Shown one piece after another: positions 19,623 to 48,884 of a stretch of 64,000 bases of DNA (its first letter is position 1; each line of letters begins with the position of its first letter). This DNA comes from an uncultured Pirellulaceae bacterium. GTDB lineage: Bacteria > Planctomycetota > Planctomycetia > Pirellulales > Pirellulaceae. The stretch spans positions 3,266 through 67,265 of the forward strand of contig CAYUNP010000002.1 of the NCBI GenBank assembly GCA_964446085.1. Direction: 5' to 3'. The notes under the pieces were generated by a model. It saw only the letters and a list, made by a program, of their open reading frames with translations. It was not told the origin of the DNA and ran no database searches. Made by a program: the position numbers and the translations under genes.

Positions 19623-19729
19623 GGTTCGCTTAACTTTAATGGTGATGTTGTGATGTGTCGTTCGAAAAATTTACGCTGCCCCGGAACGCAAAATCGGCAG
19701 CAAACGTCTGCCGTCAACCTGCTTCCGCC

Positions 19730-30214: not shown

Positions 30215-31870
30215 TTACTTCGACACAGCAAGGTCCAATTCGCGGTCCATGTTTTCGTTGTCAGAAGCAACGGTACTGGAGAAAATGGAATCAAAGCCGC
30301 CGTGTCGAACTATCGACTCGGCACTTTTCCTGAACGGTGGATCAATTGCCAAACCTGATTGAGCCACAATCTCACAACAAAGTGTCTCCAATTGTGCCAG
30401 ATTGATTCCAAATCGTTTGTTGAATTGTCCGTTGGTCATTTGATCTTTAAGCCGTTGATTGGATTCCCGAATCAATGGCATTTGTGAAATGTCGACCGTT
30501 CCACCGGCCTCGACATCTTTAGTCACCTCGTGCCACTTGCGAAAGAAATCCTGCATGAAATGGTTGAGCTTGCCGAGTTTCGTCAGCCGTCTCAGGTTTC
30601 GCATGTACATCGTTTGATGGCACATCCGATCGTGCATGAATATGAAACCGGTAATCGACCAGTAAACCATATAGTCCCAAAGAATCTTCGTTGGCATCAC
30701 GGTTGGATTACCGAACATTCGATACTGATCCTGATATGCCGTCGCCGTTCCGTAGTAGAACCGCTTAAAGATTCGATCGTACGAAAACGCGCGTATGCGA
30801 ATCCCCTGCCCTGACAAATCCCGGTGAATCAGGTCAGTCAAGAAAGTGTTCGCAAAACCGATGAAGTCGCTTCCGGGAGAGTAAAACGGATCGTGAAAGA
30901 AACCGGCCTCTCCTGTGATCCCCCATCGCTGCGACGAAAACACCTGATCGCACTCGACAGCGTAATGTTTGATCGCGCGAAAATCCTGTAGCTCATCAAT
31001 GTTCTCACGAACCGCCAATGCGCATTGCGGCTCGTGCTTTTCCAACCACGCCAATGCTTTGTCAAAGGAATTGAAATCGGAAAGTGAGTGAAACTCTTCT
31101 GCCCCCACGATGCCCATACTCGTCGAACCCGAAGCCAGAGGGATCAACCAAACCCAGTACCCCTGCCCCATCAGGTGATTGGTGCTGTACCACCGCGCCG
31201 TTTTACCGGAGTGCCCTTCGTGCCACTGGTTATCGCTGGACCAATCGTCGATCTTGATATGCTTCTTGAACCGAAACCAGGCCGCATTGCCAATGTGCGG
31301 TGATTCTTTTTGCATGTTCAACTGTCGCTTGATAAACGCCCGCCTGCCACTCGCATCAACTACCCAACGGGATTCAACCGATTTGGGATTTCGATCCACC
31401 TCAAAACTAACCGTGTGCTTTTTGCCTCGATCATCAAGCTCAACGTTTTTGATTTTCGCTCGCTGAACAAAATCAATCCCTCGCTCCAGACAAAGGTCAG
31501 CCAGATAGTTTTCGAATCGACCACGATCAAGCTGATAACTGGGACACGGCGCATAACGCTTCCCGCCAAGCTCCAATCGGTCTTCGATGCGCGAGTTGTC
31601 ACCGGCAGGAAAGAAGAATCTGAGGCCGAGTTTGGGCAACTGTTCGTCGAGAATATGTTGCTTCAGCCCCAGGACTTCGCCGAAATAATAGGCTGCCACC
31701 TCGACAGTCGACTCTCCGACCTTGAATGCCGCTTCGGGAACCGGATGCTCGCGCTTTTCCAACACGGTAATCGAAGCATTGGGCAACTTCTGTCGGCACT
31801 GAAGCGCAAACGTCAGTCCCGCAAGGCCGCCTCCAAGCACTGTGATGTCGCTGGTTTGATTCGTTTGCAT
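30215..31870 (-). CDS. Flavin-dependent halogenase-like enzyme (copy A)
   Basis: GGGLAG FAD motif, [18 protein letters not shown] (Lys in the catalytic-Lys position), DASGR, YWVWLIP (WxWxIP), [17 protein letters not shown] 31870 preferred. Confidence 0.75.
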
Positions 31871-31986
31871 TTTTGATTTCCGCTTTAACGTGGTCGCAAA
31901 TTTTATGCTCAAAAGTCTGTAGTGCCGCCTTTGGGCGGAATGCATCAGCAGCGATTTCCGCTAAAGCCGACACCAGGAACCAGTTC

Positions 31987-33612
31987 CTAAATACTCAACA
32001 ATTCAAACACATGTTCCAAATGATGTTCTGTCTCTCCACGAGCCGGGATGTCAATACTGACCTCCGGCTGAGTCTGTTGAACGCGCTGCGTAATTTCGTA
32101 CATCAGCTCGCGAATCAAATCCACATTCTCCTGAAAGCGAACCTTCAACGCCGCATCGTCGAGCTCTTCACGAAGCTCCGCATTGAGCCGTGTCATGATT
32201 TCGATCTGGCTCTGATCGACAAACGCTCCATTCGCATTGACCGTCGGATCGGCGTCGTACCATTTCCGAAAGAAATCCTGCATCTTCAAATTCATGTCCC
32301 GAATCTCTTCAACGCCTTTGGACTGAGACTGAATGAAGCTGACGTCGGTTAACTTGCCACGGAAATACAACAGCGCCGGGAAGCCCCAGTAAACTGCATA
32401 GTCCCATACAAACTTGAGCGCCATGATGCGCGGGTTGCCAAAGAGTGGGTATTGATCGCGATAGGTGATCAAATTGTTTTGAAACAGAGTCAAAAACACA
32501 CTTTGCAATGTCGGTGCCAGATGTTGGATCGATCGGCCTGCCAGATCTTCTTCGATCAGTTTGCCAACCATCGTGTTGCCGATCGCGATGAAGTCACTAC
32601 CGGGTGAATAAAACGGATCCAGCAAAGCGGCCGCTTCACCGACCAGCCCCCAGCGGTCAGCTGAAAAAACCTGTTTTGCTCCACGCGAAATTTTCCTGAC
32701 CGCCAAAAAATCCTGCATCCTGTCGACGTGCGGTCGAATACTGTCAGCACACTCCGGCTCGTGCTGCTCCAACCACGCAATTGATTTTTCAAAGCTGTTG
32801 ATATCTCGCAGCGAGTGGATGCTTGGATCGGCCACGATTCCAATACTGGTCGAACCAGTCGACAGCGGAATGATCCAAACCCAATAACCTTCGCCCATCA
32901 GGTGGTTGGTACTCAGCCAACGGCGCGGAACCTTACCCGTCAACGATTGCCAGTTGGCATCGTCACACCACTTGTCGATCTGGATCCCCGCATCAATACG
33001 AAACCAGACGGCGTTGATGTCGTGATTCAGATCTTCTTCGAGATTGAGTTTTCGTTTCAAAAAGCTGGCTCGCCCACTGGCATCGACAACCCAGCGAGCG
33101 TTGATCGAATCTTCGGAACCATCTTTCAAAAACGTCAAACTGTGTCCGCGCGAATCCGGTTCCTCTGTGGCAGAAACCAGATCGACGCTACGAATTCGTG
33201 AACCCGAAATAATCGTCGCGCCCATCTCGATGGCTGTTTCGGCCAGATAGTTCTCCAACCGCCCACGATCCACCTGATAGCTGGGAGCTGAGAAAAAAGT
33301 ACTCCCGCCGACTTCTGTTCCTTCAGCCAGTGACTGGCAAGCATCCTTGAAGAAGAATCGCAATCCGAATTTCGGCAACTGCTGATCGGTCAGATGTTTT
33401 TTGAGCTGCAGCTCTTCCCCAAAATAATGCGCACCAATCTCGACGGTTGACTCACCAACTTTGTGAGTCGTTTCAGAAACCGGAAACTGACGTTTTTCAA
33501 TCACGGCAATCCGGGTCTCGGGCCGCTTCATCAGCAACTGTCTGGCCAGCGTTAGTCCAGCCAGACCGCCACCCAGTATTGCGACATCGTATTGGTTATT
33601 GTTGGAAATCAT
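31987..33612 (-). CDS. Flavin-dependent halogenase-like enzyme (copy B)
   Basis: [50 protein letters not shown]; collinear paralog of copy A. Confidence 0.75.
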   Translation of the reverse strand: MISNNNQYDVAILGGGLAGLTLARQLLMKRPETRIAVIEKRQFPVSETTHKVGESTVEIGAHYFGEELQLKKHLTDQQLPKFGLRFFFKDACQSLAEGTEVGGSTFFSAPSYQVDRGRLENYLAETAIEMGATIISGSRIRSVDLVSATEEPDSRGHSLTFLKDGSEDSINARWVVDASGRASFLKRKLNLEEDLNHDINAVWFRIDAGIQIDKWCDDANWQSLTGKVPRRWLSTNHLMGEGYWVWIIPLSTGSTSIGIVADPSIHSLRDINSFEKSIAWLEQHEPECADSIRPHVDRMQDFLAVRKISRGAKQVFSADRWGLVGEAAALLDPFYSPGSDFIAIGNTMVGKLIEEDLAGRSIQHLAPTLQSVFLTLFQNNLITYRDQYPLFGNPRIMALKFVWDYAVYWGFPALLYFRGKLTDVSFIQSQSKGVEEIRDMNLKMQDFFRKWYDADPTVNANGAFVDQSQIEIMTRLNAELREELDDAALKVRFQENVDLIRELMYEITQRVQQTQPEVSIDIPARGETEHHLEHVFELLSI

Positions 33613-33702: not shown

Positions 33703-36700
33703 CTATGCCATTTCCTCTTTCCTGACTTCAACCTGCACAAACTCCTCGTCCTTAACATGATCATCAATCTCTGTAATCCAATAGCGTTTTTTCTGGAACG
33801 GATAAGTCGGCAAACTGAGGCGATTTCGTTCCCAATACTGGCTCAAAGCTGCAAAGCATGGATTTACACCGCCCGCATACAACTTCCCAAGGGCACTCAG
33901 CAGCGACGTTGAAGCATCCTGATTGGAACTCAGACTTTTCAAACGAGTCGCACCAAATTCAAGTGTCGCGATATCGCCCCAATCGCCCACACCAAGCTCC
34001 AACACAAAATCGCAATCCATCCCACTCAACGTCGCAACCGACTCCGGCAGCATTGGCTTGGCGCTACAATGCTCCCGCCAGTAGCTACCGCCGAGCGACT
34101 TGTGAACTGGAACGACATTCCCACCGATGCTGCAGATCAACGACATGTTGGGTGGGTAATAGTTAAACTGGTCTGCGAAAGCCTCAAACGCATTCAGAGA
34201 TTCTTCGTTCGGCGTTACGTCACCACCAGAAACAACTTTGCCGCGTTCAAGAACCAGCAACAAAGCATCGTTGAAGCAAAGACAGCCAGCCATACAAGCC
34301 GCAACATATTGTCCAACGCCAAATCCAAGCACCACATCTGGTTCAACGCCCCACTGAAGCCATATCTTTGCCAACCCTGCCTGCAACACAAACTGTTTAA
34401 CATCCGCAGGCACCGCCGATTCCGAATCAGCTCCTTCCGCACCAAGCCACGCTTGCAGTTGGAAAACTGATTGCTGAGTCTGCGACAAATGCGACATCAA
34501 CCGTTGATCAAACTCTCCGATCATTTCACGAAATACAGGCTCGGTGGCAAACAGATCGTGAGCAAAACTGTCATCAGCCGAAAGCATTCCAGCAAAAAAC
34601 CAGCCAACCCTGGGCGCTGCTTTGCAAACACCTTGAGCAATGCCTTCGAAGTGATGATGTGCTCCATTTCCTGAACCGTTTGCTCCGGCGGCACGTAGGC
34701 CATTGAGCGTCGAGGCAGAGTTCCCACCAACAAGTTCATTCAGTTTCTGTATCGCATCTTCAGGCGACTTGATTGTCAAAGCAACACGATGCTCAAAATG
34801 GCGACGACCACTGGCGGCGGTGTGACATACATCGGCCAAACGGATCGCGGAATTTTGCTCGATGAATTCACGATAATCCGACGTTAACTGCGAAAGGGCA
34901 TTTTCGTTTCGCGCACTCAACACCAACAACTCCGCCGTACGCCCTGGTTGATCGCTCGATCGAACGTCTGAACCATCGCCAGGCAAACTGGTATCCATCT
35001 TCACTGCATCGTCGGGTGCAGAACTCAACACAATATGCGCGTTGGTTCCAACCAACCCCAACGCCGTAATCCCGGCTCTTCGCTCTTCGACTTCCGGCCA
35101 AGGCGTAGGCTCGGTCACCATTTTCACCGGCATCCGCTGCCACGGAATGTGTGGACTCGGTTTGTCAAAATGAGCCTGCGGCGGAATCACGCCTTTGTGA
35201 ATCGACAACACCGTCTTGATTAAACCCGAGACACCGCCAGCGGCTTCCAGGTGACTGATATTGGCTTTCACTGAACCAACCAACAATGGCTGATCCGGCT
35301 TTCGCCCTTTCCCGTAGACACCCGACGCGGCCCCCAGCTCCATTGGATCGCCGTATTCGGTTCCAGTTCCATGGGCTTCGAGATACTGAACTTGCGACGG
35401 CGCGATTCCCGCGTCCTTCAAAGCATCACTGATCACGCGTGTCTGAGCCTTGCCGCTGGGCGACGTAATCCCGCCACTGAAACCGTTATGAACGACGGCT
35501 CCACCGCGAACGACCGCCATGATCCGATCGCCATCACGTTGGGCATCGCCAAGCCGTTTCAAAACGACGACTCCGCAACCTTCGCCGCGACCGAATCCAT
35601 TTGCGTCCGCCGAAAACGACTTGCAGCGACCCTCGGGTGAAAGCAAACCTGCCTTGGACATTAACAATGAATTGACCGGCGCAAGAATCGCGTTGACTCC
35701 GCCTGCCAATGCCATATTGCAGTTTCCATCCTGCAGGCTTCGCACTGCCTGAAACAGCGCAACCAACGAACTACTGCTGGCTGTATCAACTGCGATGCTC
35801 GGCCCTTCGAAACCAAACACATAACTGATTCGTCCTACGCCCGCACTGTGCGAAAGCCCGGCTCCCTGAAACTGTTTAACAACGTCGATGTCGTCCATCG
35901 TCGGAATGAAAGCATAGTCCTGCCCCATGATTCCCATGAACACGCCGACGTTGGAATCCGTCAGCGGGTGCGGTGAGATCCCGGCATCCTCCATCGCCCG
36001 GTAACTGTTCTCCAGCAGCATACGGTGTTGCGGGTCAATCCAGCACGCTTCCTGATCAGAGATGTTAAAGAACGCCGCATCGAAATTCGCAATGTCATCG
36101 AGAAAGCCACCTTCGCGTGTGTACATTTTGCCCGGCTCGCGATCGGCACTGTAAAACCGATCCATATCCCAGCGATCGGCAGGAATCTCACACACCGAAT
36201 CAACACCGTTGATCAGGTTATCCCAAAACTCGTCGACATTGTTTGCACCAGGAAACCGGCAGCTCATGCCGACGATTGCCACATCTTCGCGTACTCGCGC
36301 CGCTTGCTGGAGCGGCTGATCGGTGACGGCTGCTACAGCCGGAGTTCCAGCCTCTGCCTGGTTGGCTACCAACTCCAGAACAAAATCGGTGATCGCATCG
36401 ATCGTCGGATAGTCAAACAACATCGTCGGACCGACTTCGAAATCATCACCCAGCATTTGCTGAAGCTCCGTTCCGAATTCGACTGCCATCAACGAGTCCA
36501 ATCCCATTTCGATCAGTGGTCGATCCGTTTCCGGTGCATCGGGTGTCGAAAGGATTCCCTGCAACGAATCGCGAATCGTACCCAGCAGCAATTCTCTTTG
36601 AGCCGGCCCACGAAGCCGTTTCAACCGACCGACCAACTCCGAATCGCCTTTGGACACCTTTCGTTTTCCAGCAACGAGACCATCAAGCATCGCAGGCGAC

Positions 36701-39700
36701 TCTCCGCCGAGTCCCATTCTCATTCGTTGCCACTGGACATCCATGACGGTCGCCTGGACAACGTCGTCGACAAGCATTCTTTCCATCGCTGAGTGAGCTT
36801 CGGAAATCGTAAGTGGCGTGATGCCGGACAAAGCCAGTCGCTTGATGATTCGCTCGTCGTCTGCCATTCCTTCAGTCCACGGCCCCCAGTTGATGCTCGT
36901 CGCAGGAAGGCCAAGTGCGCGTCGTTGCCAGGCCAACCCGTCAAGGAATGCGTTGGCGGTTGCGTAATTGCTTTGCCCGGGTGATCCGAGAACCGATGCG
37001 GCAGAAGAGTAGAGGACGAAGAAGTCCAGTTCGAGAGTTTTCGTGAACTCGTGCAGCAAGCTGGCTCCACTGACTTTGGGCGCGAGCACCTTTTCAAATC
37101 GCTCCCACGATTGATCTCCAATCAAACCGTCGTCCAAAACTCCCGCCGCGTGAATGACTCCCGAAAGCGGTTTGAGATCATCACCAAAACGGGACAACAT
37201 TTTTTCAACATCATCGCGTGAAGACATATCAGCCGAATGAACGATAACTTTACAGCCTGCCTCTTTGATCGTGTCGAGAAAACATTGCGTCGATTCATCG
37301 GGAGAGCGTCTTGAAACCAGCACAACCTCCGTCGCCCCGTTTTCAGCAAGCCATTTCGCGGCTTGTCGACCCAGCATTCCCAAGCCACCCGTGACCAGAA
37401 AGCTACCTTCGGCGTTGACTTCAAATTCTGTTTTGCTTTTCCTGTTGACCGAAGTCCGTTTCATCCGCGGAACCATAAACTGGCCGTCACGAACGACTAA
37501 CTGATTGTCCCGCGTTTCGGTGAGCAAAATTTCCAGAACCGCAGTCGATGTTTCCGGGTTTTCAATCTCGCCAGAACCAACGTCGATCAAGCGGCAACGA
37601 AACTCCGGCTGTTCGGCTCCGATGACGCGTCCGAGTCCCCAATACTGTGTTTGATTGGGATCAACAGCTTCTGAATCATCGCTGGCGATCGCATCCGTCG
37701 TGATCAGTTGCAACCCACACTCAATTCGCCGCTGACCACGAACCGCGAGCGTCGCAGTCAGATTCAACAGTCCGGTACAGTTTTCTCTGGTTCGCGATTC
37801 CTGGCTGGCAGTTGTAAACCAGGCGATGCCCTGCGGCGCGAAAGGTTGGTCATCCGTAGACAATTGATCGAAAAGCGCACTCCAGTTCTCAGGCGACTCA
37901 CTGCACATTGAAAACCGGTTTTCGGACTCCTGTTTCATTCCGCTCTGGCTTCCGATCTCCAATTCAACAACGCGATGTCCTTTTGTTTCCAGTTCCGCCA
38001 CAACACGTGGAGCAACGCTGTCGTTTTGGCCGCGAATGATCAACCAATCTCTGTTCTCCGCACTGGCCGCGGGCAGGCGCAAGCGTTCCCAATTCAATTC
38101 GAAAATCAAACGTTCCGATCCGCTGCCACTCATTTGCCGCAGCGCCGCGATGCTGACCTGCTGAACCTTTAGTTCTTCAATCTCCGCAACGACCTGCCCT
38201 GCTTCATTGAACAAAACCAAATCCGCCGTTCGAATTTTGCCCTCATTCTGATTCCAGCGAGCGTGACACCAGACTTCATTTTCGATCGTCTGCAAACAAC
38301 GAACTCGCCCGATTCCAACGGGCAAAAACAAATGACCGTCGTCTTCTCGCAGCAGTCCGACGGCCAGCGAGTGCAATGCACCGTCGAGCAACGTCGGAGC
38401 AATCGTAAACCCGCGAACGTCGCCATTGGTTTTAAGCTGCGTGAGGACTTCGGTTTCCGAATACCGCAATGAATCAATCGTTTGGAACTTGGGACCGTAG
38501 TTCAGACCAAGCTGCGACATTTTCTGATAAAAGTCCGCGGGCGTTGCCGACTCAGTACATGCGGCTTCCAACGCGGCGCGGTCGATCAGATCGAGCGGTG
38601 AATTCTCACTTGAAACGATCTTGCCGGTGAAGTTCCGAGTCCAACTCCTGGCATTGGCGGGCGAAGAAAAGACTTCGATCGTTTGCTGGTCTTCCGTTTT
38701 GCGCACAATCGTTTGCAGGCTCGTTCGCGACGTTGGGCGAAGTGGCTGCTCAAAAACGATGTCGGCGACCTGATCAGAGCCAGCAGCGGCCAACGCCATC
38801 TCAACGTAAGCTGCACCGGGCAAAACAACGTTGCCCATGACTTCGTGATCGGGCAACCACGGCGGACTGTCAGGCTCCACAAAACTTTCATATCTCGATT
38901 CGTTTTCGATTCCCGCAAGTGAAACGGCTCCGCCAAGCAACGGATGAGCCGTGTGATACTCGGCGTGAAAGGCTCGCGGTTTGTCCGGCCCCCAAAACCT
39001 TCGTCGCTCAAACGGATACGTCGGTAGCAAAATCCGACGAGGAGTTTGCCCGCTCTGGTCGTCGTGAATCGCTGCGAAGTCCGGTGTCGATCCTTGAACG
39101 TAAAGCTGCCCGACCGCTTTCAAAATTGATTCGACATCGTCGGCATCTTTCTGCAGGCAACTAATCAGCGATCCAGCAGGGCGCTTCCAGTTTGCAGTCG
39201 CCATGCGAGTCAAAACCGATTGCGGGCCAAGCTCAAGAATGACTTCGCAACCGAGTTCAGCAGCGGCTTCGATACCCGTGGAGAAACGGACGGCTTCACG
39301 GATATGACGCGCCCAATATTCTCCGTCGAGCGTTTGATCGACCGTTAACGGTTTACCGGAAACGTTGCAGATCAGCGGCAGTTGGGCCGGACTGAATGTG
39401 ATGCCGTCAGCGAACTTTTGAAACGGCTCAAGTGCCGGCTCCATCAGCGACGAGTGAAATGCATGCGACGTCTGCAACAGTTTGGTGCGAACGCTCTGTT
39501 CTGAAAATCGGGATTCCAATTCGCCGATCGCCAACTCGGTGCCGCTGACAACGACATGCGTTCCATTTAGCGCGGCAAGGGAAACATCGGCAGCGGTTTC
39601 AATTTGTTTGGTGACGATATCGAGCGGAGCAAAGACAGCCATCATTTTTCCGCCAGCAGGAAGCTCGCCAATCAGCCGGCCGCGTTCACTGATCAAACGC

Positions 39701-41700
39701 AAGCCGTCTTCCCATGACATGATGCCAGCAACACAGGCCGCTGCGTATTGTCCAACGCTATGGCCAAGCACTACATCGGGCTTGAGCTCCCAGTGTTGCA
39801 ACAGTTGGGCGAGTCCCATTTGCACGGCGAAGATCGCGGGCTGCGTCCAGTGTGTGTTGTGGATCCTGGTTTCGTTTTCGAACAGGACTTCGGTAAGCGA
39901 CTCCTGTCGCAGCGGTTGCAACTGGGCTTCGCAGCGGTCAATCGCGTCCCGGAAAACAGGTTGAGATTCGTAAAGGGACCTGGCCATGCCAACGTACTGC
40001 GAACCCTGACCGGTAAATTGCCAGGCGACTTTCGGGGCTCGACGACCGCTTCCGATAAAGGAGTTACCAGACGTCGTTTCTCGTGAAATCTTTTTTAAAC
40101 GCTGGATTGCTTCGTTGTGATCTTTGGCAACCACAGCGGCGCGGTGTTCAAAGTGACTTCTACCAGTGCCGGATGTGAATGCGACATCACGGAGCTTCAG
40201 CGACTGATCCGATGTCAACGCGTCCGCGTATTCTTCGGCCAACGTTTGCACAACGGATTCGCTTTTCCCGCTCAGTACGATCAACTGTGATTCCTGCGAG
40301 TTATTCGGAATTCGCGTAGCGGTAACATCAGGCGCCTCGATCACTACATGCGCGTTCGTGCCGCTCATGCCAAACGCACTGACACCGGCAATCCTGCGAC
40401 CGGATTCGGGCCAGTCGGTAGCGTCAGTGAGGACTTTGACGGGAATTTTGTCCCACGGAATATGTGGGTTGGGTGTTTCAAAGTTCAGCTGCCCCGGGAT
40501 CTTGTCGTTTTGAATCGCAAGCAGAACTTTGATCAACCCAGCCATTCCCGAAGCAGCTTCGAGGTGGCCGATGTTGGTTTTGACTGAGCCAACGAGTAAT
40601 GGATTTTCTGGCGAACGTTCCTGAGTCAGCGCCGCAGCAGCGGCCTGGATTTCAACCGGATCACCAAGCTCGGTTCCCGTTCCATGGGCTTCGAGATAGG
40701 CGACGTCGGCGGGTTCAACACCGGCTCGCTCAAGGGCCTGGCGGATAACTTTTGTTTGTGATTTTGGATTGGGAGCAGTCAGCCCACTGCTGAATCCGTT
40801 ATGCCCGACGGCTGAGCCGCGAATGATTCCCAGAATCGGATCGCCGTTGGCTTGCGCGTCCGATAGTCGCCGCAATGTCACGACACCGCAACCTTCGCCA
40901 CGCAGGTACCCATCGGCAGCTGCATCAAACGCACGAGACTGACCAGTGGGCGAGAGGGCTTTTAATTTGCAAGTCAAAATGTTGGTCGTCGGTGAACAGA
41001 TCGCGTTGACACCACCGACAAGTGCCTGATCGCAATCACGTCTCTGTAAACTCTGGATCGCCAGGTGCAGTGCCACCAACGATGAAGAACAGGCTGTGTC
41101 GACCGCGACGCTGGGCCCTTGTAGGCCAAGGTAATACGCCAGCCTTCCACAAAGGAAACTTCCCGCGGCACCGGTTGCGATGTATGGGTTGAGGTTCAGA
41201 AACGAATCGCTGGCTTCGTTTTGATAATCGTTATGCATCCAGCCGACAAAGACGCCTGTGGATTCACCGATTGATTCGGGCTTCCAGCCAGCTCGCTCGA
41301 TCGCTTCCCAACCAACTTCCATCAGCAACCGCTGTTGTGGATCGACCCAGGTCGCTTCGCGTGGTGAGATGCCGAAGAATTCAGGATCCATCTGATCGAT
41401 GTTTTCCAGAAACACGCCGCGACGAGCATACATCTTTCCGGGCACTTCAGGGTCATCATCGTGGAAGGCATCCAGGTCCCAACGGTCGTCAGGAATGTCA
41501 CCAACTTCGTCGGTTTGATCGAGTAACGATTGCCAGAACGCTTCAGGGGTGTTGGAGTGGCGGGGAAAACGACAGGCCATCGACACGATCGCGATCGGTT
41601 CGCCTGAGTTGGATTGCGCGTCCGCAAGTTGCTGCTTCAACTCACGGATCTTGAGCAGAGCCTGTTTGTTCGGAGACAGGTTTTGGGAATCAGTTGTCAT
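33703..41700 (-). CDS. Type I modular PKS: docking-KS-AT(malonyl)-DH-KR-ACP-KS(Cys->Ser)-truncated inactive AT
   Basis: KS1 DTACSSS/HGTGT/NIGH; AT1 GHSVG and HAFH; DH HEVMGNVVLP and DGALH; KR GGLGMLG, LDD, YATAN; ACP GLDSL; KS2 DTASSSS/HGTGT/NISH; AT2 GFGVG lacking Ser and the small subdomain. No terminal ACP or TE. Confidence 0.93.
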   Translation of the reverse strand: MTTDSQNLSPNKQALLKIRELKQQLADAQSNSGEPIAIVSMACRFPRHSNTPEAFWQSLLDQTDEVGDIPDDRWDLDAFHDDDPEVPGKMYARRGVFLENIDQMDPEFFGISPREATWVDPQQRLLMEVGWEAIERAGWKPESIGESTGVFVGWMHNDYQNEASDSFLNLNPYIATGAAGSFLCGRLAYYLGLQGPSVAVDTACSSSLVALHLAIQSLQRRDCDQALVGGVNAICSPTTNILTCKLKALSPTGQSRAFDAAADGYLRGEGCGVVTLRRLSDAQANGDPILGIIRGSAVGHNGFSSGLTAPNPKSQTKVIRQALERAGVEPADVAYLEAHGTGTELGDPVEIQAAAAALTQERSPENPLLVGSVKTNIGHLEAASGMAGLIKVLLAIQNDKIPGQLNFETPNPHIPWDKIPVKVLTDATDWPESGRRIAGVSAFGMSGTNAHVVIEAPDVTATRIPNNSQESQLIVLSGKSESVVQTLAEEYADALTSDQSLKLRDVAFTSGTGRSHFEHRAAVVAKDHNEAIQRLKKISRETTSGNSFIGSGRRAPKVAWQFTGQGSQYVGMARSLYESQPVFRDAIDRCEAQLQPLRQESLTEVLFENETRIHNTHWTQPAIFAVQMGLAQLLQHWELKPDVVLGHSVGQYAAACVAGIMSWEDGLRLISERGRLIGELPAGGKMMAVFAPLDIVTKQIETAADVSLAALNGTHVVVSGTELAIGELESRFSEQSVRTKLLQTSHAFHSSLMEPALEPFQKFADGITFSPAQLPLICNVSGKPLTVDQTLDGEYWARHIREAVRFSTGIEAAAELGCEVILELGPQSVLTRMATANWKRPAGSLISCLQKDADDVESILKAVGQLYVQGSTPDFAAIHDDQSGQTPRRILLPTYPFERRRFWGPDKPRAFHAEYHTAHPLLGGAVSLAGIENESRYESFVEPDSPPWLPDHEVMGNVVLPGAAYVEMALAAAGSDQVADIVFEQPLRPTSRTSLQTIVRKTEDQQTIEVFSSPANARSWTRNFTGKIVSSENSPLDLIDRAALEAACTESATPADFYQKMSQLGLNYGPKFQTIDSLRYSETEVLTQLKTNGDVRGFTIAPTLLDGALHSLAVGLLREDDGHLFLPVGIGRVRCLQTIENEVWCHARWNQNEGKIRTADLVLFNEAGQVVAEIEELKVQQVSIAALRQMSGSGSERLIFELNWERLRLPAASAENRDWLIIRGQNDSVAPRVVAELETKGHRVVELEIGSQSGMKQESENRFSMCSESPENWSALFDQLSTDDQPFAPQGIAWFTTASQESRTRENCTGLLNLTATLAVRGQRRIECGLQLITTDAIASDDSEAVDPNQTQYWGLGRVIGAEQPEFRCRLIDVGSGEIENPETSTAVLEILLTETRDNQLVVRDGQFMVPRMKRTSVNRKSKTEFEVNAEGSFLVTGGLGMLGRQAAKWLAENGATEVVLVSRRSPDESTQCFLDTIKEAGCKVIVHSADMSSRDDVEKMLSRFGDDLKPLSGVIHAAGVLDDGLIGDQSWERFEKVLAPKVSGASLLHEFTKTLELDFFVLYSSAASVLGSPGQSNYATANAFLDGLAWQRRALGLPATSINWGPWTEGMADDERIIKRLALSGITPLTISEAHSAMERMLVDDVVQATVMDVQWQRMRMGLGGESPAMLDGLVAGKRKVSKGDSELVGRLKRLRGPAQRELLLGTIRDSLQGILSTPDAPETDRPLIEMGLDSLMAVEFGTELQQMLGDDFEVGPTMLFDYPTIDAITDFVLELVANQAEAGTPAVAAVTDQPLQQAARVREDVAIVGMSCRFPGANNVDEFWDNLINGVDSVCEIPADRWDMDRFYSADREPGKMYTREGGFLDDIANFDAAFFNISDQEACWIDPQHRMLLENSYRAMEDAGISPHPLTDSNVGVFMGIMGQDYAFIPTMDDIDVVKQFQGAGLSHSAGVGRISYVFGFEGPSIAVDTASSSSLVALFQAVRSLQDGNCNMALAGGVNAILAPVNSLLMSKAGLLSPEGRCKSFSADANGFGRGEGCGVVVLKRLGDAQRDGDRIMAVVRGGAVVHNGFSGGITSPSGKAQTRVISDALKDAGIAPSQVQYLEAHGTGTEYGDPMELGAASGVYGKGRKPDQPLLVGSVKANISHLEAAGGVSGLIKTVLSIHKGVIPPQAHFDKPSPHIPWQRMPVKMVTEPTPWPEVEERRAGITALGLVGTNAHIVLSSAPDDAVKMDTSLPGDGSDVRSSDQPGRTAELLVLSARNENALSQLTSDYREFIEQNSAIRLADVCHTAASGRRHFEHRVALTIKSPEDAIQKLNELVGGNSASTLNGLRAAGANGSGNGAHHHFEGIAQGVCKAAPRVGWFFAGMLSADDSFAHDLFATEPVFREMIGEFDQRLMSHLSQTQQSVFQLQAWLGAEGADSESAVPADVKQFVLQAGLAKIWLQWGVEPDVVLGFGVGQYVAACMAGCLCFNDALLLVLERGKVVSGGDVTPNEESLNAFEAFADQFNYYPPNMSLICSIGGNVVPVHKSLGGSYWREHCSAKPMLPESVATLSGMDCDFVLELGVGDWGDIATLEFGATRLKSLSSNQDASTSLLSALGKLYAGGVNPCFAALSQYWERNRLSLPTYPFQKKRYWITEIDDHVKDEEFVQVEVRKEEMA

Positions 41701-41802: not shown

Positions 41803-43833
41803 TTATGCTTCCAGTTCTTTCATCAACTCTTCCAGTGCCTGCTCTTCTGACATTGAGGCGACTTCCTGTCCCGTTGTAGAATTTGGTTGCGAAACATCGG
41901 TTAGTTTTTGGAACGCGTTGCCATGTGGTTGAAGTTGTGTCTTGCTCTTGTCGGCTGCTTTATCGGCGCTGACCGTCTTCAATAAAAAATCGGCCAGGTC
42001 ACTGAGTCGCGGATAGTCGAAAACGAGAGTCGCGGGAACTTCGTTTTCCGGTCCAAGTTCGACTTGAATCTGCGAACTCATTTCCACGACCATCAATGAA
42101 TCGAATCCCGCGTCCAGGAATCGGGTATCGGATTCAGGTCGTTCTTCTGATCCGGTGATGGACTGGACCAAGCCCTGCACGAAATTGAGTGAAACTTTTG
42201 GCTGGTCGGCAGCGAAAGCTGACTGAAGTTGTTTGCGAAGCGTAGGAGGGCGAAGTTTTGCAGAAGATACAACTGCTGAATCAGCCGACGATTCCTCACT
42301 TTGTTCAGACACGCCGAGGTTAACTCCTGCGATGTCCATCTCGCGAAGATTTGTCTTGAGGATTTTGCCGGATGGATTACGCGGCAGTTCGTCGATCACG
42401 ACAAACTCGCGAGGCACTTTGTAGTTGGCAAGATTTTCTGAAGCGAGCTTTTGCACGCTGGCATTCAATTGATCATCGGCCTCTTTCCCAGAAGCACCTG
42501 CGACCAGAAACGCGACAACTTTCTCGCCAAAGACATCATCTGGAATTCCAACAACCGCACACTGCGAAACGTCGGAGTGATCGAGCAGGACGCGTTCGAC
42601 TTCTGCCGGATAGACTTTCTGCCCACCAACGGAAATCATGTCTTTGACTCGGTCGACGATATAAAAAAAACCGGTTTCGTCGATACGGCCAATGTCTCCC
42701 GAGTGAAACCAACCGCCTTTGATTGCTGCAGAGGTGTCGTCGGGGCGATTCCAATAACCAAGCATTACGTTTGGACCACGAATCGCGATCTCGCCCAGTT
42801 CGCCTGGCGCGCAAGTCGCACCAGTTTCGGTGTCAACAATTTTCATCTCCACACAGTCAATCGGCGTCCCAATCGAACCGGGGATGAATTTATTCCGATG
42901 GTTGTAACTCGCAAACGGCGAAGTCTCAGTCAGTCCATAGCCTTCGTGGATCGGCAATCCAAACTTTTCCTGCCAACGTTGACCGACCTGAATCGGCAAT
43001 GTTGCGGCGGCCGAGAAACAATAGGTAACCGTGCTCAATTCGGCTGGCTGAAAACTGTCCTGGAATAGCTGGAACATCATCGGCACGCCGTAAAGCTGGG
43101 TGACGCTTTCTTCGGCGATCAACTGCTTGGCTTCTGATGGATCAAACTTTCGCTGCAAAACCAGCGTCGCTCCAACATTAAGAGCCGAATTCAGGAGCGC
43201 GTTTTGACCAAAGCAGTGAAACAACGGCACGGCCAACAAAATGCGATCCTTCGATTGCATGTTGCACAAATGATTGAACGCATGAACATTGGAGCGAACG
43301 TTCATGTGCGAAAGCGTCGCGCCTTTGGCGAATCCCGTTGTGCCTGATGTGTAAAGGATCAACGCGGGATCATCAGGCGCGGCGTCGATCCATTTCTCCG
43401 ACGCAGGCGACGGTTGCGCCAGCGGTTCACCATTGCAAAGGTCGCCCGGATCCGAAGACGCATAACGGTTGGCGACGCAAGCGGGCAAATCAGATTTCAG
43501 TTTGTCCAGTGTCTCGGCCAACGCGACAAAGATCCTGGCTTGGCAATCTTCGACCAGAAACGAAACTTCCGACGCCGCAAGTCGAGTGCTGATGGAAACT
43601 GCGATGGCTCCAATTCTCAGCGTCGCATAATACCAGACAACAAACGCTGGGACGTTAGGCATCATGATCGCAACTCGATCGCCTTGTGCCACGCCTGCCT
43701 CGGCTAACAATCCAGCAACCGAACGCGACATTGAATCGAGTTCTGCGAAAGTAAACCGACGGCCTTCGAATACAATCGCCTCCTTGTCAGGAAACAGTTT
43801 GGCCGTAGCGGTTAGGTGTTCGCAGATGTTCAT
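41803..43833 (-). CDS. Acyl/aryl-AMP (CoA-ligase-type) adenylation domain fused to ACP; PKS loading module
   Basis: YTSGTTGFAKG, PLFHCFG, GYGLTE, GWFHSGDIG and PSGKILK, then ACP GFDSL and an acidic C-terminal docking helix EEQALEELMKELEA. Confidence 0.9.
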   Translation of the reverse strand: MNICEHLTATAKLFPDKEAIVFEGRRFTFAELDSMSRSVAGLLAEAGVAQGDRVAIMMPNVPAFVVWYYATLRIGAIAVSISTRLAASEVSFLVEDCQARIFVALAETLDKLKSDLPACVANRYASSDPGDLCNGEPLAQPSPASEKWIDAAPDDPALILYTSGTTGFAKGATLSHMNVRSNVHAFNHLCNMQSKDRILLAVPLFHCFGQNALLNSALNVGATLVLQRKFDPSEAKQLIAEESVTQLYGVPMMFQLFQDSFQPAELSTVTYCFSAAATLPIQVGQRWQEKFGLPIHEGYGLTETSPFASYNHRNKFIPGSIGTPIDCVEMKIVDTETGATCAPGELGEIAIRGPNVMLGYWNRPDDTSAAIKGGWFHSGDIGRIDETGFFYIVDRVKDMISVGGQKVYPAEVERVLLDHSDVSQCAVVGIPDDVFGEKVVAFLVAGASGKEADDQLNASVQKLASENLANYKVPREFVVIDELPRNPSGKILKTNLREMDIAGVNLGVSEQSEESSADSAVVSSAKLRPPTLRKQLQSAFAADQPKVSLNFVQGLVQSITGSEERPESDTRFLDAGFDSLMVVEMSSQIQVELGPENEVPATLVFDYPRLSDLADFLLKTVSADKAADKSKTQLQPHGNAFQKLTDVSQPNSTTGQEVASMSEEQALEELMKELEA

Positions 43834-43978: not shown

Positions 43979-45643
43979 TTATTGAGTTCCTTGCAAAAAA
44001 CTGTGTTCAAACGAATCAAGAATTGGCTTGACGGCTTCAACCACCGCGCCCTCATCCCGAATATTCTGGTGCAGGGCTTCTATATCCTGTTCCAGCCAAC
44101 GATCGGAATCGTCGAACAGGAATGGCCTGTCCTGACCAGGCGAAGAATCAAGAACTTCGTAAACCGCCGAGTAAAGTGGCCGGGCCTGGTCGCCAATCAC
44201 TTTCCTTCCGTCGTAATGTCCGTAGCTGGATTTAGCCCGCATATCGAGAGCCTGAACTCCAAAGATCAACGCGATGGCCGAATATTGCTGGAACAGTTCG
44301 ACTGACTTCCAGGCCAAATTCGCCGCGCCCCAACTCAGCCCATTCACGTTTTGATTGAACTGTTCGGCGTGAGTCGGGAAATGTTCGACCAGCGGATTGG
44401 CGTTGTAGGTCAACATGGGCATAATCGAGTTGCCTGTGATCTGTAACCCCTTGAGCCCCATGTTGTAGGAAAGCGATTCGTTGCCGCGAAGCGACGGAGT
44501 CAGCCCGCCACTGAATTCGGGCGTGACCAGCGACGCAATTTGCACATCGAGATGCTTGGCCATCAGTCCGATGAACCGGCGCAGATCGTCCATCGCGATG
44601 CCAACGTACTGGCCGAGAAAATTTCCACTTTGATAAAACTGCCCCGAAGTCGGATCAATCATCGGGTTATCGGAAACAGAATTCATCTCCGTCTCGACGA
44701 CCCGATTGATGCGTGCAATACCTTCGACGATCGGGCCCATGTATTGAGGCAGGCATCGCAGCGAATAGCGATCCTGGACTTTGATCGGTTTACCGTTGGT
44801 GTGCTCTCGGCCTTCGGCAAGCCAACGTTTTGAGATCTTTGCTGTCCAGATTTGACCGGGGTGCGGTTTGTGTTGATGAACGAAATCGTCAAACGGGCTT
44901 TCATTGACCAGCAGTGCACGTAGCATCAACGACTGTGTTCCAACCGTCAGCGCCATCAAGCTGCGGGCTTCGTAGCTTGCATTGGCTGCGATCGCAGAAG
45001 AGAACGACGTCCCGTTGATGATCGCAAGACCTTCCTTGGGCTGCAATTGAAGTGGCTTCAATCCAAGTTCACGAAGCGCTTCAGCTCCATCGACAACTCG
45101 ATCGCCCATCTGGACTTTGACATGCCCGATGCCGGTGATGGCTCGCGCGATTGCTGACAATGGAACCAGATCGCCGCTGGCACCGATCGAACCGAGCTCA
45201 CGTACGACCGGAGTGGCGTCGGCCTTAAAGAATCGAACCAGGCGATCGATGATCTCCATTCGCACACCCGAGCAACCACGCAGCAAAACGTTGGCTCGCA
45301 AAATCATTGCTGCCCGGACATGACGAGAATCAATTGGCGATCCGGCTGAAGCTGCCAGAAAGGAAAGCAAGTTGTCCTGCGACGCCGCCGCGTGTGAGGA
45401 AGAAATTTCTTCGCCGGCCATTGCTCCAAAGCCAGTCGTAACGCCATAGATTTTTTCGCAGGAAGAAACCGCCTGGGCCACGGTACGTGAAGAAGCCGCG
45501 ATGCGTTCACGAAGAGACTCGTCGTCTTTGATCGAAATTGCCAATTCTTTTTTGGCGACCGCAACAATCGTCTGGATCGATTCCTTGTTCCCGGCGAGCG
45601 ACAGCTCTTTGCCAGAAACAACATTTACTTTTTCGGTCAACAT
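43979..45643 (-). CDS. pal: MIO-dependent aromatic amino acid ammonia-lyase, probably phenylalanine ammonia-lyase
   Basis: IYGVTTGFG, GSIGASGDL (MIO-forming ASG), QDRYSLRCLPQ, SDNP, GNFLGQYVG, HAEQFNQN. The selectivity site reads SFL (Phe-Leu, PAL type). Confidence 0.85.
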   Translation of the reverse strand: MLTEKVNVVSGKELSLAGNKESIQTIVAVAKKELAISIKDDESLRERIAASSRTVAQAVSSCEKIYGVTTGFGAMAGEEISSSHAAASQDNLLSFLAASAGSPIDSRHVRAAMILRANVLLRGCSGVRMEIIDRLVRFFKADATPVVRELGSIGASGDLVPLSAIARAITGIGHVKVQMGDRVVDGAEALRELGLKPLQLQPKEGLAIINGTSFSSAIAANASYEARSLMALTVGTQSLMLRALLVNESPFDDFVHQHKPHPGQIWTAKISKRWLAEGREHTNGKPIKVQDRYSLRCLPQYMGPIVEGIARINRVVETEMNSVSDNPMIDPTSGQFYQSGNFLGQYVGIAMDDLRRFIGLMAKHLDVQIASLVTPEFSGGLTPSLRGNESLSYNMGLKGLQITGNSIMPMLTYNANPLVEHFPTHAEQFNQNVNGLSWGAANLAWKSVELFQQYSAIALIFGVQALDMRAKSSYGHYDGRKVIGDQARPLYSAVYEVLDSSPGQDRPFLFDDSDRWLEQDIEALHQNIRDEGAVVEAVKPILDSFEHSFLQGTQ

Positions 45644-45728: not shown

Positions 45729-48700
45729 TCACGCCTCCTGAATGTGACCTGGGCTCACGTTTTGGGCCGTCTCAAAGTTATCCAGCTCCCGTTTTCGATG
45801 CAGCAGCAAATACAATGCGGGCACGAAATAGAGTGCCAGAAACGTAGCCCCGCCAACGCCTCCAGCGATCGTAATCGCGAGCGGCGGCCAGAATTTTCCG
45901 CCGCCAAGTATCAGCGGAGTGAACCCAACGATCGTCGTCAATGTGGTGGCGATGATATGTCGAGTGCAGCCGGAGACCACGCCGACGAGCGATTCCGAGT
46001 CTCCGCAGCGAGCCGAATCATTGCTGCGGATGGCTGCCAGAACCACGATCGAATCGTTGATCGCCACGCCAACCAAACCCATCGTCCCGACGATCGACAT
46101 GAATCCAAATGGAAAACCGAAAACCGAAAGTGCCAACGGTCCCAGGCCAATCGACAGCCCTCCCACGACCGAAACAATAATGGCACAGCGAAACGAATGA
46201 AAGGATGCGACCAGCGTTAACAACATCAGCGCAAACAACACAATCGCATTGGCGATCAAACTGTTAACCGCGTTGGATCGCTGCTCCGTTTCTCCACCCA
46301 GTTCCAGGTCGTAACCAGCTGGCATTGCGAAATCCGCATTTGCCAATCGCTGCCTGAAATCATCCAGAACCGTCGAAGGCAAAACGCCTGCCCGAATGTA
46401 AGCTTTGACTTCGTTCGCACGTCGTCCATCAATTCGAACCACAGCACCAACATCTGACTTGAGCTCAAAGTTTGCCAGGCTGGCCACTGTCGGGTTGGCC
46501 GATGTCGTGGGAGGTCGTCCCGTGGGAGGTCCTGCACCACGCGGCGGCGGTCGACGTCCAGGCGAAGTCAACTGCAATGCCGAAAGCAGGTCCAGTTTTG
46601 AGTCACCGTCGAAATCAAGTTTGACCACTATCGGAAGTTCTTCATTGCCGTCAAAGATCTCTCCGGCAGGTGCACTTTCCAAAGTCGTGTAAAGTTGAGC
46701 TGCGATCTGGGTCTCGGTAAGCCCTGATTTTTTCGTAAGCACTTTGTCAAAATCCAGAGTCAACTTGGGTATCGTTTCTTCCAAATCCGATCGTGTATGA
46801 ATCACGTTGGGCGTTTGACTCAACAGCAGCCGCAATTGCGACCCAATCTGTTGTAGCGTTGCCAGGTCCGGCCCGACCACACGGACTTCAATCGGAGCAT
46901 CAAAAGGTGGGCCCTGCTCCAGTTGCCGAACAATCACGCGACTATCAAGTACGCTTGCGTCGATAGCTTCCTGCAGATCGTTGACGACATCGTCGGTCGC
47001 CAGGCCATCGCCAACATCCACAATCGCCTGAGCATAAAACGCCGTGCCTCTACGGCGTGGCACAACGTTGTAGTAGAACGTCGGTGCACTGCCGCCCAGG
47101 AACCAGTGCTGGCGTTTCACATTCTCGTTTTCGGAAACCACTTTTCGAATTGAATCAACCGATGAGCGGACAGCCGAAATGGAATCACGAGCTGACCGTT
47201 CGACTTCGATTTGAATCTGATCCCGATCCGATCGGGGAAAGAACTGCTGAGGCAATTTCCGGGCGACCGCAAACCCGACGATCGGCAATACGATTCCAAG
47301 CAGGATTCCAACCAGCGGGAACCGAAAAACCCAACTCAACGACCTTTCGTAGATCTCTTGCAGCACGCCGATCTTTATTCCGTAGCTGACCAGCCCACGT
47401 TGGTGTGGGTTAATATTGAGCAATGCATTGACCGGCGGAATCAGCGTCATCGCCAGCACAAAGGAAGCGCAAATCGCCAGAATGACACTCACGGCAATCG
47501 AACCTACGAACTCACCCGAGGGGCCCGGCAAAGTCGCAATCGGCAGAAATGCCAACGCGGTTGTCAACGTTGAACCAAACAATGGCATGCCGAGATGACG
47601 CACCGAACCTGTGATGGACTGCTGTGGAGATTCACCATTGACGATCCGTGTTCGAACTTCTTCCACGATCACGATCGCATTATCGATCAGCAGCCCGAGC
47701 GCCACGATCAATCCTGTCACTGACATTTGATGAATCGGAATCGAAAGGGCTCGCATGCCCGTGATCACCATCAGTGCCGACAGGGGCAAAGCCATTCCAA
47801 CCACCAGCATGCTGCGCCACCCCATCAACAGCAGAACCACCAGCGCCACTGCAGCGGTACCGACACCGAGGTTCTGCACCAGTGTCAACATTCGCTGATT
47901 GATGTGTCTCTGTTGCGAAAACAGAATCCGGGCTTCGGCTTCTTCGGAGTAATCCAGGTTGAAACTTTCGATCACTGATTCCAATCCAGTCGCCCATCGG
48001 TCAATCTGCTGGTCGTCGTTGGCGAACGCTCCAAGCACAATCGCACGTTGGCCATCGACCAGCGCCAGATTGCCAGCGGGGTCCAGTAACCGTTTCTCAA
48101 TATTGGCGATCTGCGAGAGCGCGATTGACTGCCCACTGCTACCGTGCGAAACCAGTACGTTGGCGATCCGGTTGCTGGGCAAGTCGGGTTTCTCAATATC
48201 GACAAGCGTTGCAGCTCCGTCGTTGCGCAGGTGGCCGCCGGGTTGTTTTGAGTTTTCCTGCCTGATTTGAGAAGCGATCGCAGCCAGCGAAGTATTCAAC
48301 GAAGCCAGAGTTGCAGGATCAAGTTCGGCGACGAGTTGTTCGCCCGGATCTCCAAACACATCGACTTTCCCGGTTCCCGAAATTTCAAGAATCTGATTGC
48401 GAAGTTGCTTTGCCAGGCGACGTGAAAGCGAAACGTCATCAGGGTTACTGCTGGACTTGATCGCAATGATTGCCGAATAGGCTTTCAGTGGAAACACCTC
48501 CAACTGCGGATCAAAACAGGACTCCGGCAAGCGACCACTGACGTCCGTGATGCGACTTCGCAGCAGCGTCCAAACCCGTTCAACATCGTCGACTTCATCC
48601 TTGAGTTCGACGACGATATTGGAGATACCCGTTCGGCAGTTGGATCGAACCTGCTTGATTTCAGCAACACTGGTCAGCAACTCCTCAATCGGAATCGTGA

Positions 48701-48884
48701 CCAAAGCTTCGACCTGACTGGCGTCGGCACCCGGGAAAACGGTGCTGATAACGGCAACCCGTTTGCCAAGAATGGGATCTTCAAGCCGCGGCATCACCGT
48801 CAGCGACGTCAAACCGGCAACCACAATCGTGCCGATCAAAAGCAACAGGATCCGCGGATTCTTGTACAGAAACGTTGCGATCAC
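45729..48884 (-). CDS. RND efflux permease (AcrB-like)
   Basis: [28 protein letters not shown], 12-TM pattern, 1051 aa. GTG start overlaps the MFP stop. Confidence 0.92.

Follow-up and report, generated by a model that had tools for sequence, protein, structure and literature searches.

A conserved planctomycete gene cassette joining paired flavin-dependent halogenases to a phenylalanine ammonia-lyase and a type I polyketide synthase

A seven-gene cassette ends in two halogenase genes

We examined a stretch of 64,000 nucleotides from an uncultured Pirellulaceae bacterium (GenBank assembly GCA_964446085.1, contig CAYUNP010000002.1, positions 3,266 to 67,265 of the forward strand; this whole stretch is hereafter called the window) for a pair of adjacent genes, HalA and HalB. 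The original prediction, made from the sequence alone, had described their products as twin halogenase-like flavoenzymes with no activated arene to act on. Both genes lie on the minus strand, HalA at 31987..33612 (541 amino acids) and its paralogue HalB at 30215..31945, where the listed open reading frame (ORF) encodes 576 amino acids. Both proteins match the Pfam Trp_halogenase model (PF04820), with 58.4 bits for HalB and 48.8 bits for HalA against a gathering threshold of 21, and they are 43% identical to each other over 536 residues (E = 1e-155).

The halogenase pair stands at the end of a co-directional string of seven genes, all on the minus strand. The string begins with a periplasmic adaptor (membrane fusion protein, MFP) of the resistance-nodulation-division (RND) type at 48881..49945 (NCBIfam RND_mfp, 104.5 bits against a cut-off of 94.9), which overlaps by 4 nt the start of an AcrB-type RND efflux permease at 45729..48884 (Pfam ACR_tran, E = 7e-134). 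These are followed by a phenylalanine ammonia-lyase (PAL) at 43979..45643 (Pfam Lyase_aromatic, E = 2e-133), by an aryl/acyl-AMP ligase fused to an acyl carrier protein (ACP) at 41803..43833 (Pfam AMP-binding, AMP-binding_C and PP-binding, with the carrier motif GFDSL at residues 576-580), and by a type I polyketide synthase (PKS) of 2665 amino acids at 33703..41700. The RND pump probably exports the product of the cassette. An outer-membrane factor with OEP domains is encoded far from the RND genes, at 13873-16443 on the plus strand.

All the motifs originally named for the pair (GxGxxG, PKxGxxF and WxWxIP) were found in both proteins. In HalA, GGGLAG occupies residues 14-19 (nt 33556-33573, minus strand), PKFGLRF residues 80-86 (nt 33355-33375, minus strand), with K81 as the predicted catalytic lysine, and WVWIIP residues 244-249 (nt 32866-32883, minus strand); a ten-residue motif containing D...S.G.D follows at residues 332-341 (nt 32590-32619, minus strand). 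The counterparts in HalB, in the numbering of the 576-residue ORF, are GGGLAG at residues 38-43, PKLGLRF at 104-110 (nt 31616-31636, minus strand), with K105 as the predicted catalytic lysine, WVWLIP at 264-269 (nt 31139-31156, minus strand) and the ten-residue motif at 352-361 (nt 30863-30892, minus strand). The ten-residue motif is a second FAD motif besides GGGLAG, and both are kept in the orthologues; we take it to be the subfamily form of the ordinary flavin-binding motif of flavin-dependent halogenases (FDHs), with DPIFSSG as its counterpart in our alignment with PltA. The lysine of PK(F/L)GLRF is invariant across the family and aligns with KFGAKF of the structure 3nix, while it corresponds to FPKKFG of PltA by motif only, since the gap placement of HMMER leaves the two unpaired. 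It is presumably the equivalent of K79 in RebH and PrnA (YKVAIKF in RebH).

Because the HalB orthologues are about 540-550 residues long and align from residue ~26, the real start of HalB is probably M26 (nt 31870), which would give a protein of 551 amino acids. The 25-residue basic N-terminal extension of the listed ORF (31871-31945, minus strand), which the orthologues do not carry, would then begin at an in-frame upstream ATG that is probably not the true start. A scan for promoters and terminators around the HalA-HalB pair gave no signal above background. The window stems from a marine metagenome, and a search for RNA evidence returned matches only in marine metagenome DNA runs.

The polyketide synthase ends in a didomain with both nucleophiles replaced

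Pfam domains and active-site motifs resolve the PKS into the order ketosynthase (KS), acyltransferase (AT), dehydratase (DH), ketoreductase (KR), ACP and a second KS-AT pair, here written KS*-AT*. The first module is canonical, with DTACSSS in the KS, GHSVG and HAFH (malonyl type) in the AT, HxxxGxxxxP in the DH, LDD in the KR and GLDSL in the ACP. In general, the LDD motif of a KR predicts B-type reduction and a trans double bond. The C-terminal KS*-AT* didomain (residues ~1800-2665; 33703..36303, minus strand) has lost both catalytic nucleophiles: KS* reads DTASSSSL, with Ser1975 in place of cysteine and both catalytic histidines, His2110 and His2150, kept, and AT* reads GFGVG, with glycine in place of serine. 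The domain scan found neither a terminal ACP nor a thioesterase (TE) after KS*-AT*, in the window protein or in its orthologues. To judge by these motifs, the didomain may be a domain resembling a chain-length factor (CLF), a decarboxylase-like domain or a docking scaffold. The best match of the PKS in the Protein Data Bank (PDB) was CurL, with DEBS also at the top, and similarity to solved structures was therefore uninformative as to whether the synthase is iterative or modular.

The ligase-ACP fusion presumably acts as the loading didomain for cinnamate, and its nearest PDB entries are the feruloyl-CoA synthetase 8wev, FadD13 and 4-coumarate-CoA ligases. Profile scans of the window proteins detected no hydroxylase, P450, methyltransferase or flavin reductase in the cassette or in the rest of the window.

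The starter unit is predicted to carry no ring hydroxyl

We then considered which aryl acid the cassette is likely to use. The lyase contains the methylidene-imidazolone (MIO) triad ASG (in GASGDL, residues 155-157) and, in SFLAAS (LLSFLAAS, residues 94-99), the Phe-Leu form of the selectivity switch. In this switch Phe-Leu denotes PAL, His-Leu tyrosine ammonia-lyase (TAL) and Ser-His histidine ammonia-lyase (HAL), and Phe-Leu was present in all 11 PAL orthologues that could be read. The best PDB match was PbPAL of Planctomyces brasiliensis (9EQ5, E = 9e-187, 54% identity), followed by AvPAL (Anabaena) and NpPAL (Nostoc); the cassette lyase has the same Phe-Leu switch and MIO triad. PbPAL deaminates phenylalanine and has no significant activity on tyrosine or histidine in vitro (PMC5651878), and differs from the cassette enzyme in having been studied solely as a biocatalyst. 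The score against the NCBIfam PAL equivalog, 342.9 bits, lies below its plant-trained cut-off of 519. The Phe-Leu switch and the kinship with PbPAL identify the cassette lyase, by its sequence, as a true PAL and the predicted starter as unsubstituted cinnamate.

The premise that no activated arene is available is therefore supported by the Phe-Leu switch, by the kinship with PbPAL and its assays, and by the lack of any conserved hydroxylase. The same evidence disfavours the circumstance originally named as fatal to that premise, a hydroxylated coumaroyl starter leading to ordinary ortho-phenol halogenation, and we rejected a TAL-derived starter on the switch and the PbPAL data. A pyrrole-type substrate, as used by PltA and Bmp2, was likewise rejected, given that genes for a prolyl-AMP ligase and a dehydrogenase are missing and that the ligase resembles feruloyl, coumarate and fatty-acyl ligases.

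HalA and HalB are flavin-dependent halogenases by sequence and fold

Among solved structures, the best sequence matches of the two proteins were PltA (E = 1.1e-17), the Cytophaga flavoprotein 3nix, Bmp2, ChlB4, FasV, Mpy16, CmlS, CtcP and CndH. These closest solved relatives are mostly FDHs with carrier-protein-bound or phenolic substrates, and the HalA and HalB genes are themselves strictly linked to two ACP-bearing proteins, the ligase-ACP and the PKS. The best NCBIfam model for both proteins was CmlS (E = 3.7e-19 and 5.6e-17), whose cut-off of 900 bits lies far above the 61-69 bits that they scored. From a 27-sequence alignment we built an AlphaFold2 model of HalA (predicted local distance difference test score, pLDDT, 81; predicted template modelling score, pTM, 0.86) and compared it with the PDB using Foldseek. 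Ranks 1-44 were taken by 3nix, PltM, CtcP, CmlS, Bmp2, FasV, Mpy16, RadH, PltA, ChlB4 and MalA', with TM scores of 0.43-0.72 normalised to the target. The first monooxygenase, kynurenine monooxygenase (KMO), appeared at rank 45, and all earlier matches were FDHs or the uncharacterised 3nix. By sequence and by fold, HalA and HalB are members of the FDH family, and their motifs, Pfam scores and fold agree with the original prediction in that both appear catalytically intact.

HalA and HalB resemble PltA, Bmp2 and Mpy16 (pyrrolyl-S-carrier-protein halogenases) and CndH and ChlB4 ('variant B' FDHs) in fold, catalytic lysine and WxWxIP. The substrates of these enzymes are carrier-tethered pyrrole or phenol rings, and the enzymes differ from HalA and HalB in sharing only ~17-21% identity with them, in being ~400-450 amino acids long and in having no long C-terminal domain. 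FDHs work away from aromatic rings in the chlorotonil, enacyloxin and chloramphenicol pathways. CmlS-type FDHs, which act on an enol(ate) or aliphatic carbon, are not orthologues of HalA and HalB and serve different pathways, yet they provide a precedent for halogenation off the aromatic ring, and the known substrates of FDHs in general include enol(ate)s besides arenes (PMC8169660). The original statement that such halogenases need electron-rich rings was thus too narrow.

A ~540-residue halogenase subfamily links the pair to aryl-polyene clusters

A HMMER scan of 1.84 billion representative proteins, clustered at 50% identity, returned 602 clusters with E<=1e-30. Of these 602, the best 150 share 33-59% identity with the query, mostly over nearly the full length including the C-terminal domain, and the distant relatives carry either the name 'flavin-dependent dehydrogenase' or none in the cluster look-up. 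In an alignment of 19 sequences, comprising distant relatives together with HalA and HalB, the invariant positions were G18 and G20 of GxGxxG, K..GE (KVGES), the catalytic K.G, W.W.IP and D...S.G.D. Since D...S.G.D is invariant in this alignment, the ten-residue motif is a signature of the subfamily and not a local oddity; the pattern DP[FL][YW]S[PTF]GxD[FLY] was also used jointly with that of WxWxIP in a metagenome scan, which gave at least 576 relatives. The pair does share the motif, as originally noted, but the original description of it as unusual does not hold.

For a study of gene neighbourhoods we chose 38 metagenome loci of at least 9 kb, in which the halogenase is single-copy and 40-48% identical to HalA and HalB over residues ~5-510. 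A stand-alone KS was found in 30 of the 38 loci and a CLF-like protein of the PF13723 'Ketoacyl-synt_2' family in 23. Other recurrent neighbours were a FabG-type KR (18 loci), an MMPL exporter (17), a GT2 glycosyltransferase, a lipid-A-type acyltransferase and LolA_3 (14 each), a second, short FDH of the Trp_halogenase type (12) and an AMP-ligase (10). One metagenome relative has close homologues that carry the names Steroidobacter or Steroidobacteraceae. The cultured Steroidobacter sp. S1-65 (P0306, locus L100) has a 539-residue member directly after a KS gene and a CLF-like gene, in a cluster that further holds two ACPs, a 4HBT thioesterase, a 409-residue FDH, a KR, an AMP-ligase, an FkbO/XanB2-like chorismatase, ApeP-like and ApeI-like dehydratases, MMPL, LolA_3 and a lipid-A-type acyltransferase. 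Judged by gene content, this is the set of a xanthomonadin/aryl-polyene (APE) cluster, a setting of the nearest relatives that the original prediction had overlooked. Xanthomonadin I bears one bromine, on the polyene carbon adjoining the ring. In published clusters of Xanthomonas and Variovorax, a conserved pair of KS and 'hypothetical CLF' genes is flanked by GT2 and halogenase genes, and xanthomonadin products bear 0-2 bromines (PMC3691225); halogenase entries are also listed in the Azoarcus arc cluster and in Xanthomonas clusters (PMC3949708; PMC3838355).

Xanthomonadin-type clusters contain two FDH-like genes, one of ~409-445 amino acids beside KR/KS (XanB1-like) and one of ~540 amino acids after the KS/CLF pair, as at 1314-2543 and 10001-11620 in the S1-65 locus and at 1660-2922 and 9980-11590 in locus L057. 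In L057 a Na+/H+ exchanger gene (11607-12851) lies right after the halogenase, and the Azoarcus arc cluster likewise lists a Na+/H+ antiporter (arcG).

We also built a neighbour-joining tree from a 45-sequence subsample, of which only the coarse picture is reliable, some outgroup distances being saturated. Bootstrap values were 100% for a HalA clade, 87% for a HalB clade and 68% for HalA and HalB as sisters, and 100% for the separation of the ~540-residue family from the short FDHs of the same clusters (409-445 amino acids, 21-22% identity). The HalA, HalB and APE-type lineages are about equidistant, at 42-43% identity. On these sequence comparisons, HalA and HalB are assigned as ancient duplicates within a distinct ~540-residue FDH subfamily, the other members of which are predicted xanthomonadin/APE halogenases.

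The xanthomonadin/APE halogenases (the 539-residue protein of S1-65 and the Xanthomonas 'H' gene product) share with HalA and HalB the ~540-residue architecture with a C-terminal helical domain and the motifs KVGES, PKxGxxF, WxWxIP and DPFYSPGSD. The logic of the pathways is also alike, in that both involve an aryl acid, an AMP-ligase, an ACP, a set of KS, KR and DH without enoylreductase, and an exporter of the RND superfamily. However, APE clusters combine a single-copy halogenase with a type II PKS (KS and PF13723 CLF-like protein), hydroxybenzoate from a XanB2-type chorismatase, LolA, MMPL, an acyltransferase and GT2, whereas the cassette pairs twin halogenases with a type I PKS, takes a hydroxyl-free starter from PAL and has an AcrB-type RND pump and its MFP. 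The type II APE features (KS/CLF, LolA, MMPL and acyltransferase) were absent from the window and from the 13-14 Planctomycetota loci described below. Thus, although HalA and HalB are members of the subfamily, the cassette itself does not count as an APE cluster: it resembles one in how it works, but a type I PKS, PAL and an AcrB-type RND pump replace the APE genes. Our literature search turned up no account of this cassette or of aryl polyenes in planctomycetes, and no APE halogenase that had been characterised.

The cassette is conserved across Planctomycetota

A search with the KS*-AT* end of the PKS in one genome per species yielded 14 loci in Planctomycetota (Bythopirellula, Lacipirellulaceae, Pirellulaceae and Fuerstiella). 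PAL, ligase-ACP, PKS, HalA and HalB follow one another in this same order in every locus that is long enough (13-14 Planctomycetota genomes) and also in one Lacipirellulaceae genome. In 10 related loci PAL is immediately preceded by the C-terminus of the RND permease, at 70-82% identity; the upstream comparison reaches as far as this C-terminus. The conservation of the permease at this position, together with the co-directional RND and MFP genes, suggests dedicated product export. Downstream of HalB no gene is conserved among the related loci; in the window the next gene is an alginate lyase (28785-30074), and from there on the content varies by genome. No extra conserved tailoring or release genes were found downstream of HalB among the loci compared.

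Identity to the window proteins is 72-88% for HalA (14 loci), 69-81% for HalB, 59-75% for the PKS and 56-72% for PAL. The halogenases are therefore the most constrained parts of the cassette, since their orthologue identities exceed those of PKS and PAL. The protein collection contains >120 HalA homologues above 72% identity, and those that are named belong to Planctomycetota. HalB directly follows HalA in every locus extending past HalA, with a gap of ~10-250 nt in the loci checked and of ~1.2 kb in L010, an uncultured Pirellulaceae contig (14110-15326).

GxGxxG, PKxGxxF, WxWxIP and the ten-residue motif are kept in 13-15 of the 14-15 orthologues of each paralogue, and WxWxIP in 15/15 HalA and 14/14 HalB orthologues. 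The misses are ORFs cut at contig ends or frameshifted, and every full-length orthologue keeps every motif. Sixty alignment columns, most of them in the C-terminal helical domain, are invariant within each paralogue but different between the two; this suggests that HalA and HalB differ in substrate or site. Since the motifs are kept in both and each has its own invariant columns, we regard HalA and HalB as both working, specialised enzymes by sequence, and not as an active enzyme with a decayed copy.

The degenerate end of the PKS is conserved as well. The second KS reads DTASSSSL and EAHGTGT in every orthologue, and KANISHL was matched in all but L014 and L016. The second AT carries GxGxG wherever it was matched (12/16); there was no match to it in L010, L011, L014 and L016.

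A proposed pathway and its alternatives

What is observed is the gene content, the intact motifs, the synteny, the type of PAL and the kinship within the family; from these we infer a pathway with the following substrate, halogenation site, halide, number of extension cycles and order of events. PAL would supply cinnamate, which the ligase-ACP didomain would load. The KS-AT-DH-KR-ACP module would extend it with malonate. A single round would give 5-phenylpenta-2,4-dienoyl-ACP, and iterative rounds a longer phenyl-polyenoyl thioester; the substrate named originally, a phenylpentadienoyl group, presupposes a single non-iterative extension. HalA and HalB would each use FADH2, O2 and halide, by way of a lysine haloamine or hypohalous acid, to place one halogen on the carrier-bound chain, with bromide as a plausible halide in a marine host, and the RND pump would export the product. 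Non-aromatic carbons are the most likely targets, since the ring bears no hydroxyl. The halogen could enter at C-2 of the beta-ketoacyl-ACP as its enol, chemically the best nucleophile, which would become an alpha-halo-enoyl vinyl halide after KR and DH action, or it could enter at a styryl or polyene carbon, for example the one adjoining the ring.

That HalA and HalB are genuine halogenases acting on a PKS-bound product we consider probable, and a non-aromatic site of halogenation less so. The full reading, in which the cassette is a type I PKS analogue of the halogenated aryl-polyene pathway and each enzyme halogenates the tethered chain, most likely at a non-aromatic carbon, seems to us evenly balanced between right and wrong. 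Several points weigh against it. The only things that tie the cassette to APE clusters are the halogenase and the overall logic, and its ligase and KS are not specifically kin to their APE counterparts: the comparison with APE-type loci gave no ligase match, and the best PDB match of the KS is CurL. The APE-type relatives work with hydroxybenzoate as the aryl head, and the ancestral job of the family may have been ortho-phenol halogenation, which would be impossible here without a hydroxylase encoded elsewhere. The KR and DH of the same module would vie with a halogenase for the beta-keto intermediate, and a dienoyl thioester is an electron-poor olefin. A flavin reductase is also missing among the genes that profile scans detected in the window, and the literature search found neither an assayed member of the ~540-residue subfamily nor a product.

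The alternative closest to the chemistry of the relatives is phenol halogenation after a cryptic ring hydroxylation, brought about by a hydroxylase outside the cassette or by promiscuous use of tyrosine or coumarate, in which HalA and HalB would take the two ortho positions. Two such positions would explain the twin enzymes, the biochemically characterised relatives all act on activated rings or enolates, and the APE/xanthomonadin relatives sit in clusters with a 3- or 4-hydroxybenzoate starter from an FkbO/XanB2-like chorismatase (S1-65; PMC3949708). However, the Phe-Leu switch is invariant in 11 orthologues, PbPAL at 54% identity has no TAL activity, and a hydroxylase, P450 or second flavoprotein is neither conserved alongside the cassette nor encoded nearby in the window, which makes this explanation unlikely. 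Halogenation might instead drive release of the chain, a free or KS*-bound alpha,beta-unsaturated or beta-keto acid being decarboxylated in Hunsdiecker or Bmp fashion to a halo-phenylbutadiene, as originally suggested, or to a halomethyl ketone. This would account for the missing TE, as no orthologue has a TE or a terminal ACP, and KS* retains the two decarboxylation histidines with serine for cysteine, the state of malonyl-ACP-decarboxylating KS proteins such as PksF. Flavin-dependent decarboxylative bromination also has precedents in Bmp5 and in Bmp2/Bmp1. The closest solved relatives nevertheless use carrier-bound substrates and not free acids, and APE-type clusters release their product through thioesterase-like and acyltransferase genes, so that halogenase-driven release is not a trait of the family; we judge it quite improbable.

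The remaining two explanations concern what the enzymes are rather than where the halogen goes. An obligate HalA/HalB heterodimer, with one catalytic subunit or a joint ACP-docking surface, is compatible with the other alternatives and would fit the constant adjacency and order of the two genes in loci extending past HalA, as well as the single-copy state of the APE-type relatives. Yet every catalytic motif is kept in both proteins under strong purifying selection (72-88% identity for HalA and 69-81% for HalB across two orders), and the genes are not translationally coupled, with gaps from ~10 nt to the 1.2 kb of L010, so that an obligate partnership appears very improbable. The least probable is non-halogenating oxidation, in which the flavin hydroperoxide would epoxidise or hydroxylate the chain or ring. 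The fold is common to flavin monooxygenases, with KMO appearing from Foldseek rank 45, and NCBI names some relatives 'FAD-dependent monooxygenase'. Against this, WxWxIP and the catalytic lysine are invariant in both paralogues and in the 19-sequence family alignment, all better structural and sequence matches are halogenases, bar the uncharacterised 3nix, and an unactivated phenyl ring or an electron-poor diene is a poor substrate for a flavin hydroperoxide. The universal retention of catalytic motifs in both paralogues disfavours a dead-partner role and a simple monooxygenase role alike.

Returning to halogenation of the tethered chain, a bolder version holds that the native pair produces vinyl halides, or else places halogen on an unactivated phenyl ring, with an ACP-bound phenyl-polyene as the substrate, the type I PKS working iteratively and its terminal Cys-to-Ser KS serving as a built-in chain-length factor or decarboxylase. 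We regard this version as doubtful, and no result here demonstrates unprecedented chemistry. If it were true, it would establish a planctomycete-wide halogenated aryl-polyene lipid and would explain how the chain bromine of xanthomonadins is installed. The question matters beyond this locus: the ~540-residue subfamily, with its 602 clusters, includes the halogenases of xanthomonadin-type pigment clusters, and the cassette connects to the halogenase question of ring versus polyene bromine regiochemistry in these pigments. With two paralogues, a phenol-free starter and five biosynthetic genes only, it offers a clean test case, and halogenation of a polyene or enol carbon, if true, would widen the native chemistry of FDHs and provide new biocatalysts. 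Because the halogenases are 69-88% identical across two Planctomycetota orders, above PKS or PAL, their conservation points to a product that matters to its marine and soil hosts; it may be a lipid of the membrane or cell surface, akin to the aryl-polyene photoprotectants.

Other genes in the window

Beyond the alginate lyase, which is not conserved with the cassette, the large and small subunits of glutamate synthase are encoded downstream of the region (18150-24274, minus strand); these housekeeping genes mark the limit of any plausible cluster on that side. Two ORFs of 822 amino acids without a Pfam match lie on the minus strand at 24701-27169 and 11055-13523; kinship between them was rejected (BLASTP E > 2), and their equal length is a coincidence. 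A 700-residue fusion of a domain resembling glucosamine-6-phosphate isomerase/6-phosphogluconolactonase with a PIG-L deacetylase domain is encoded at 52149-54251 (minus strand), and a 383-residue ORF at 59576-60727 (plus strand) weakly matches the AEP-TOTE primase-like domain of a conflict (defence) system (E = 4.6e-9).

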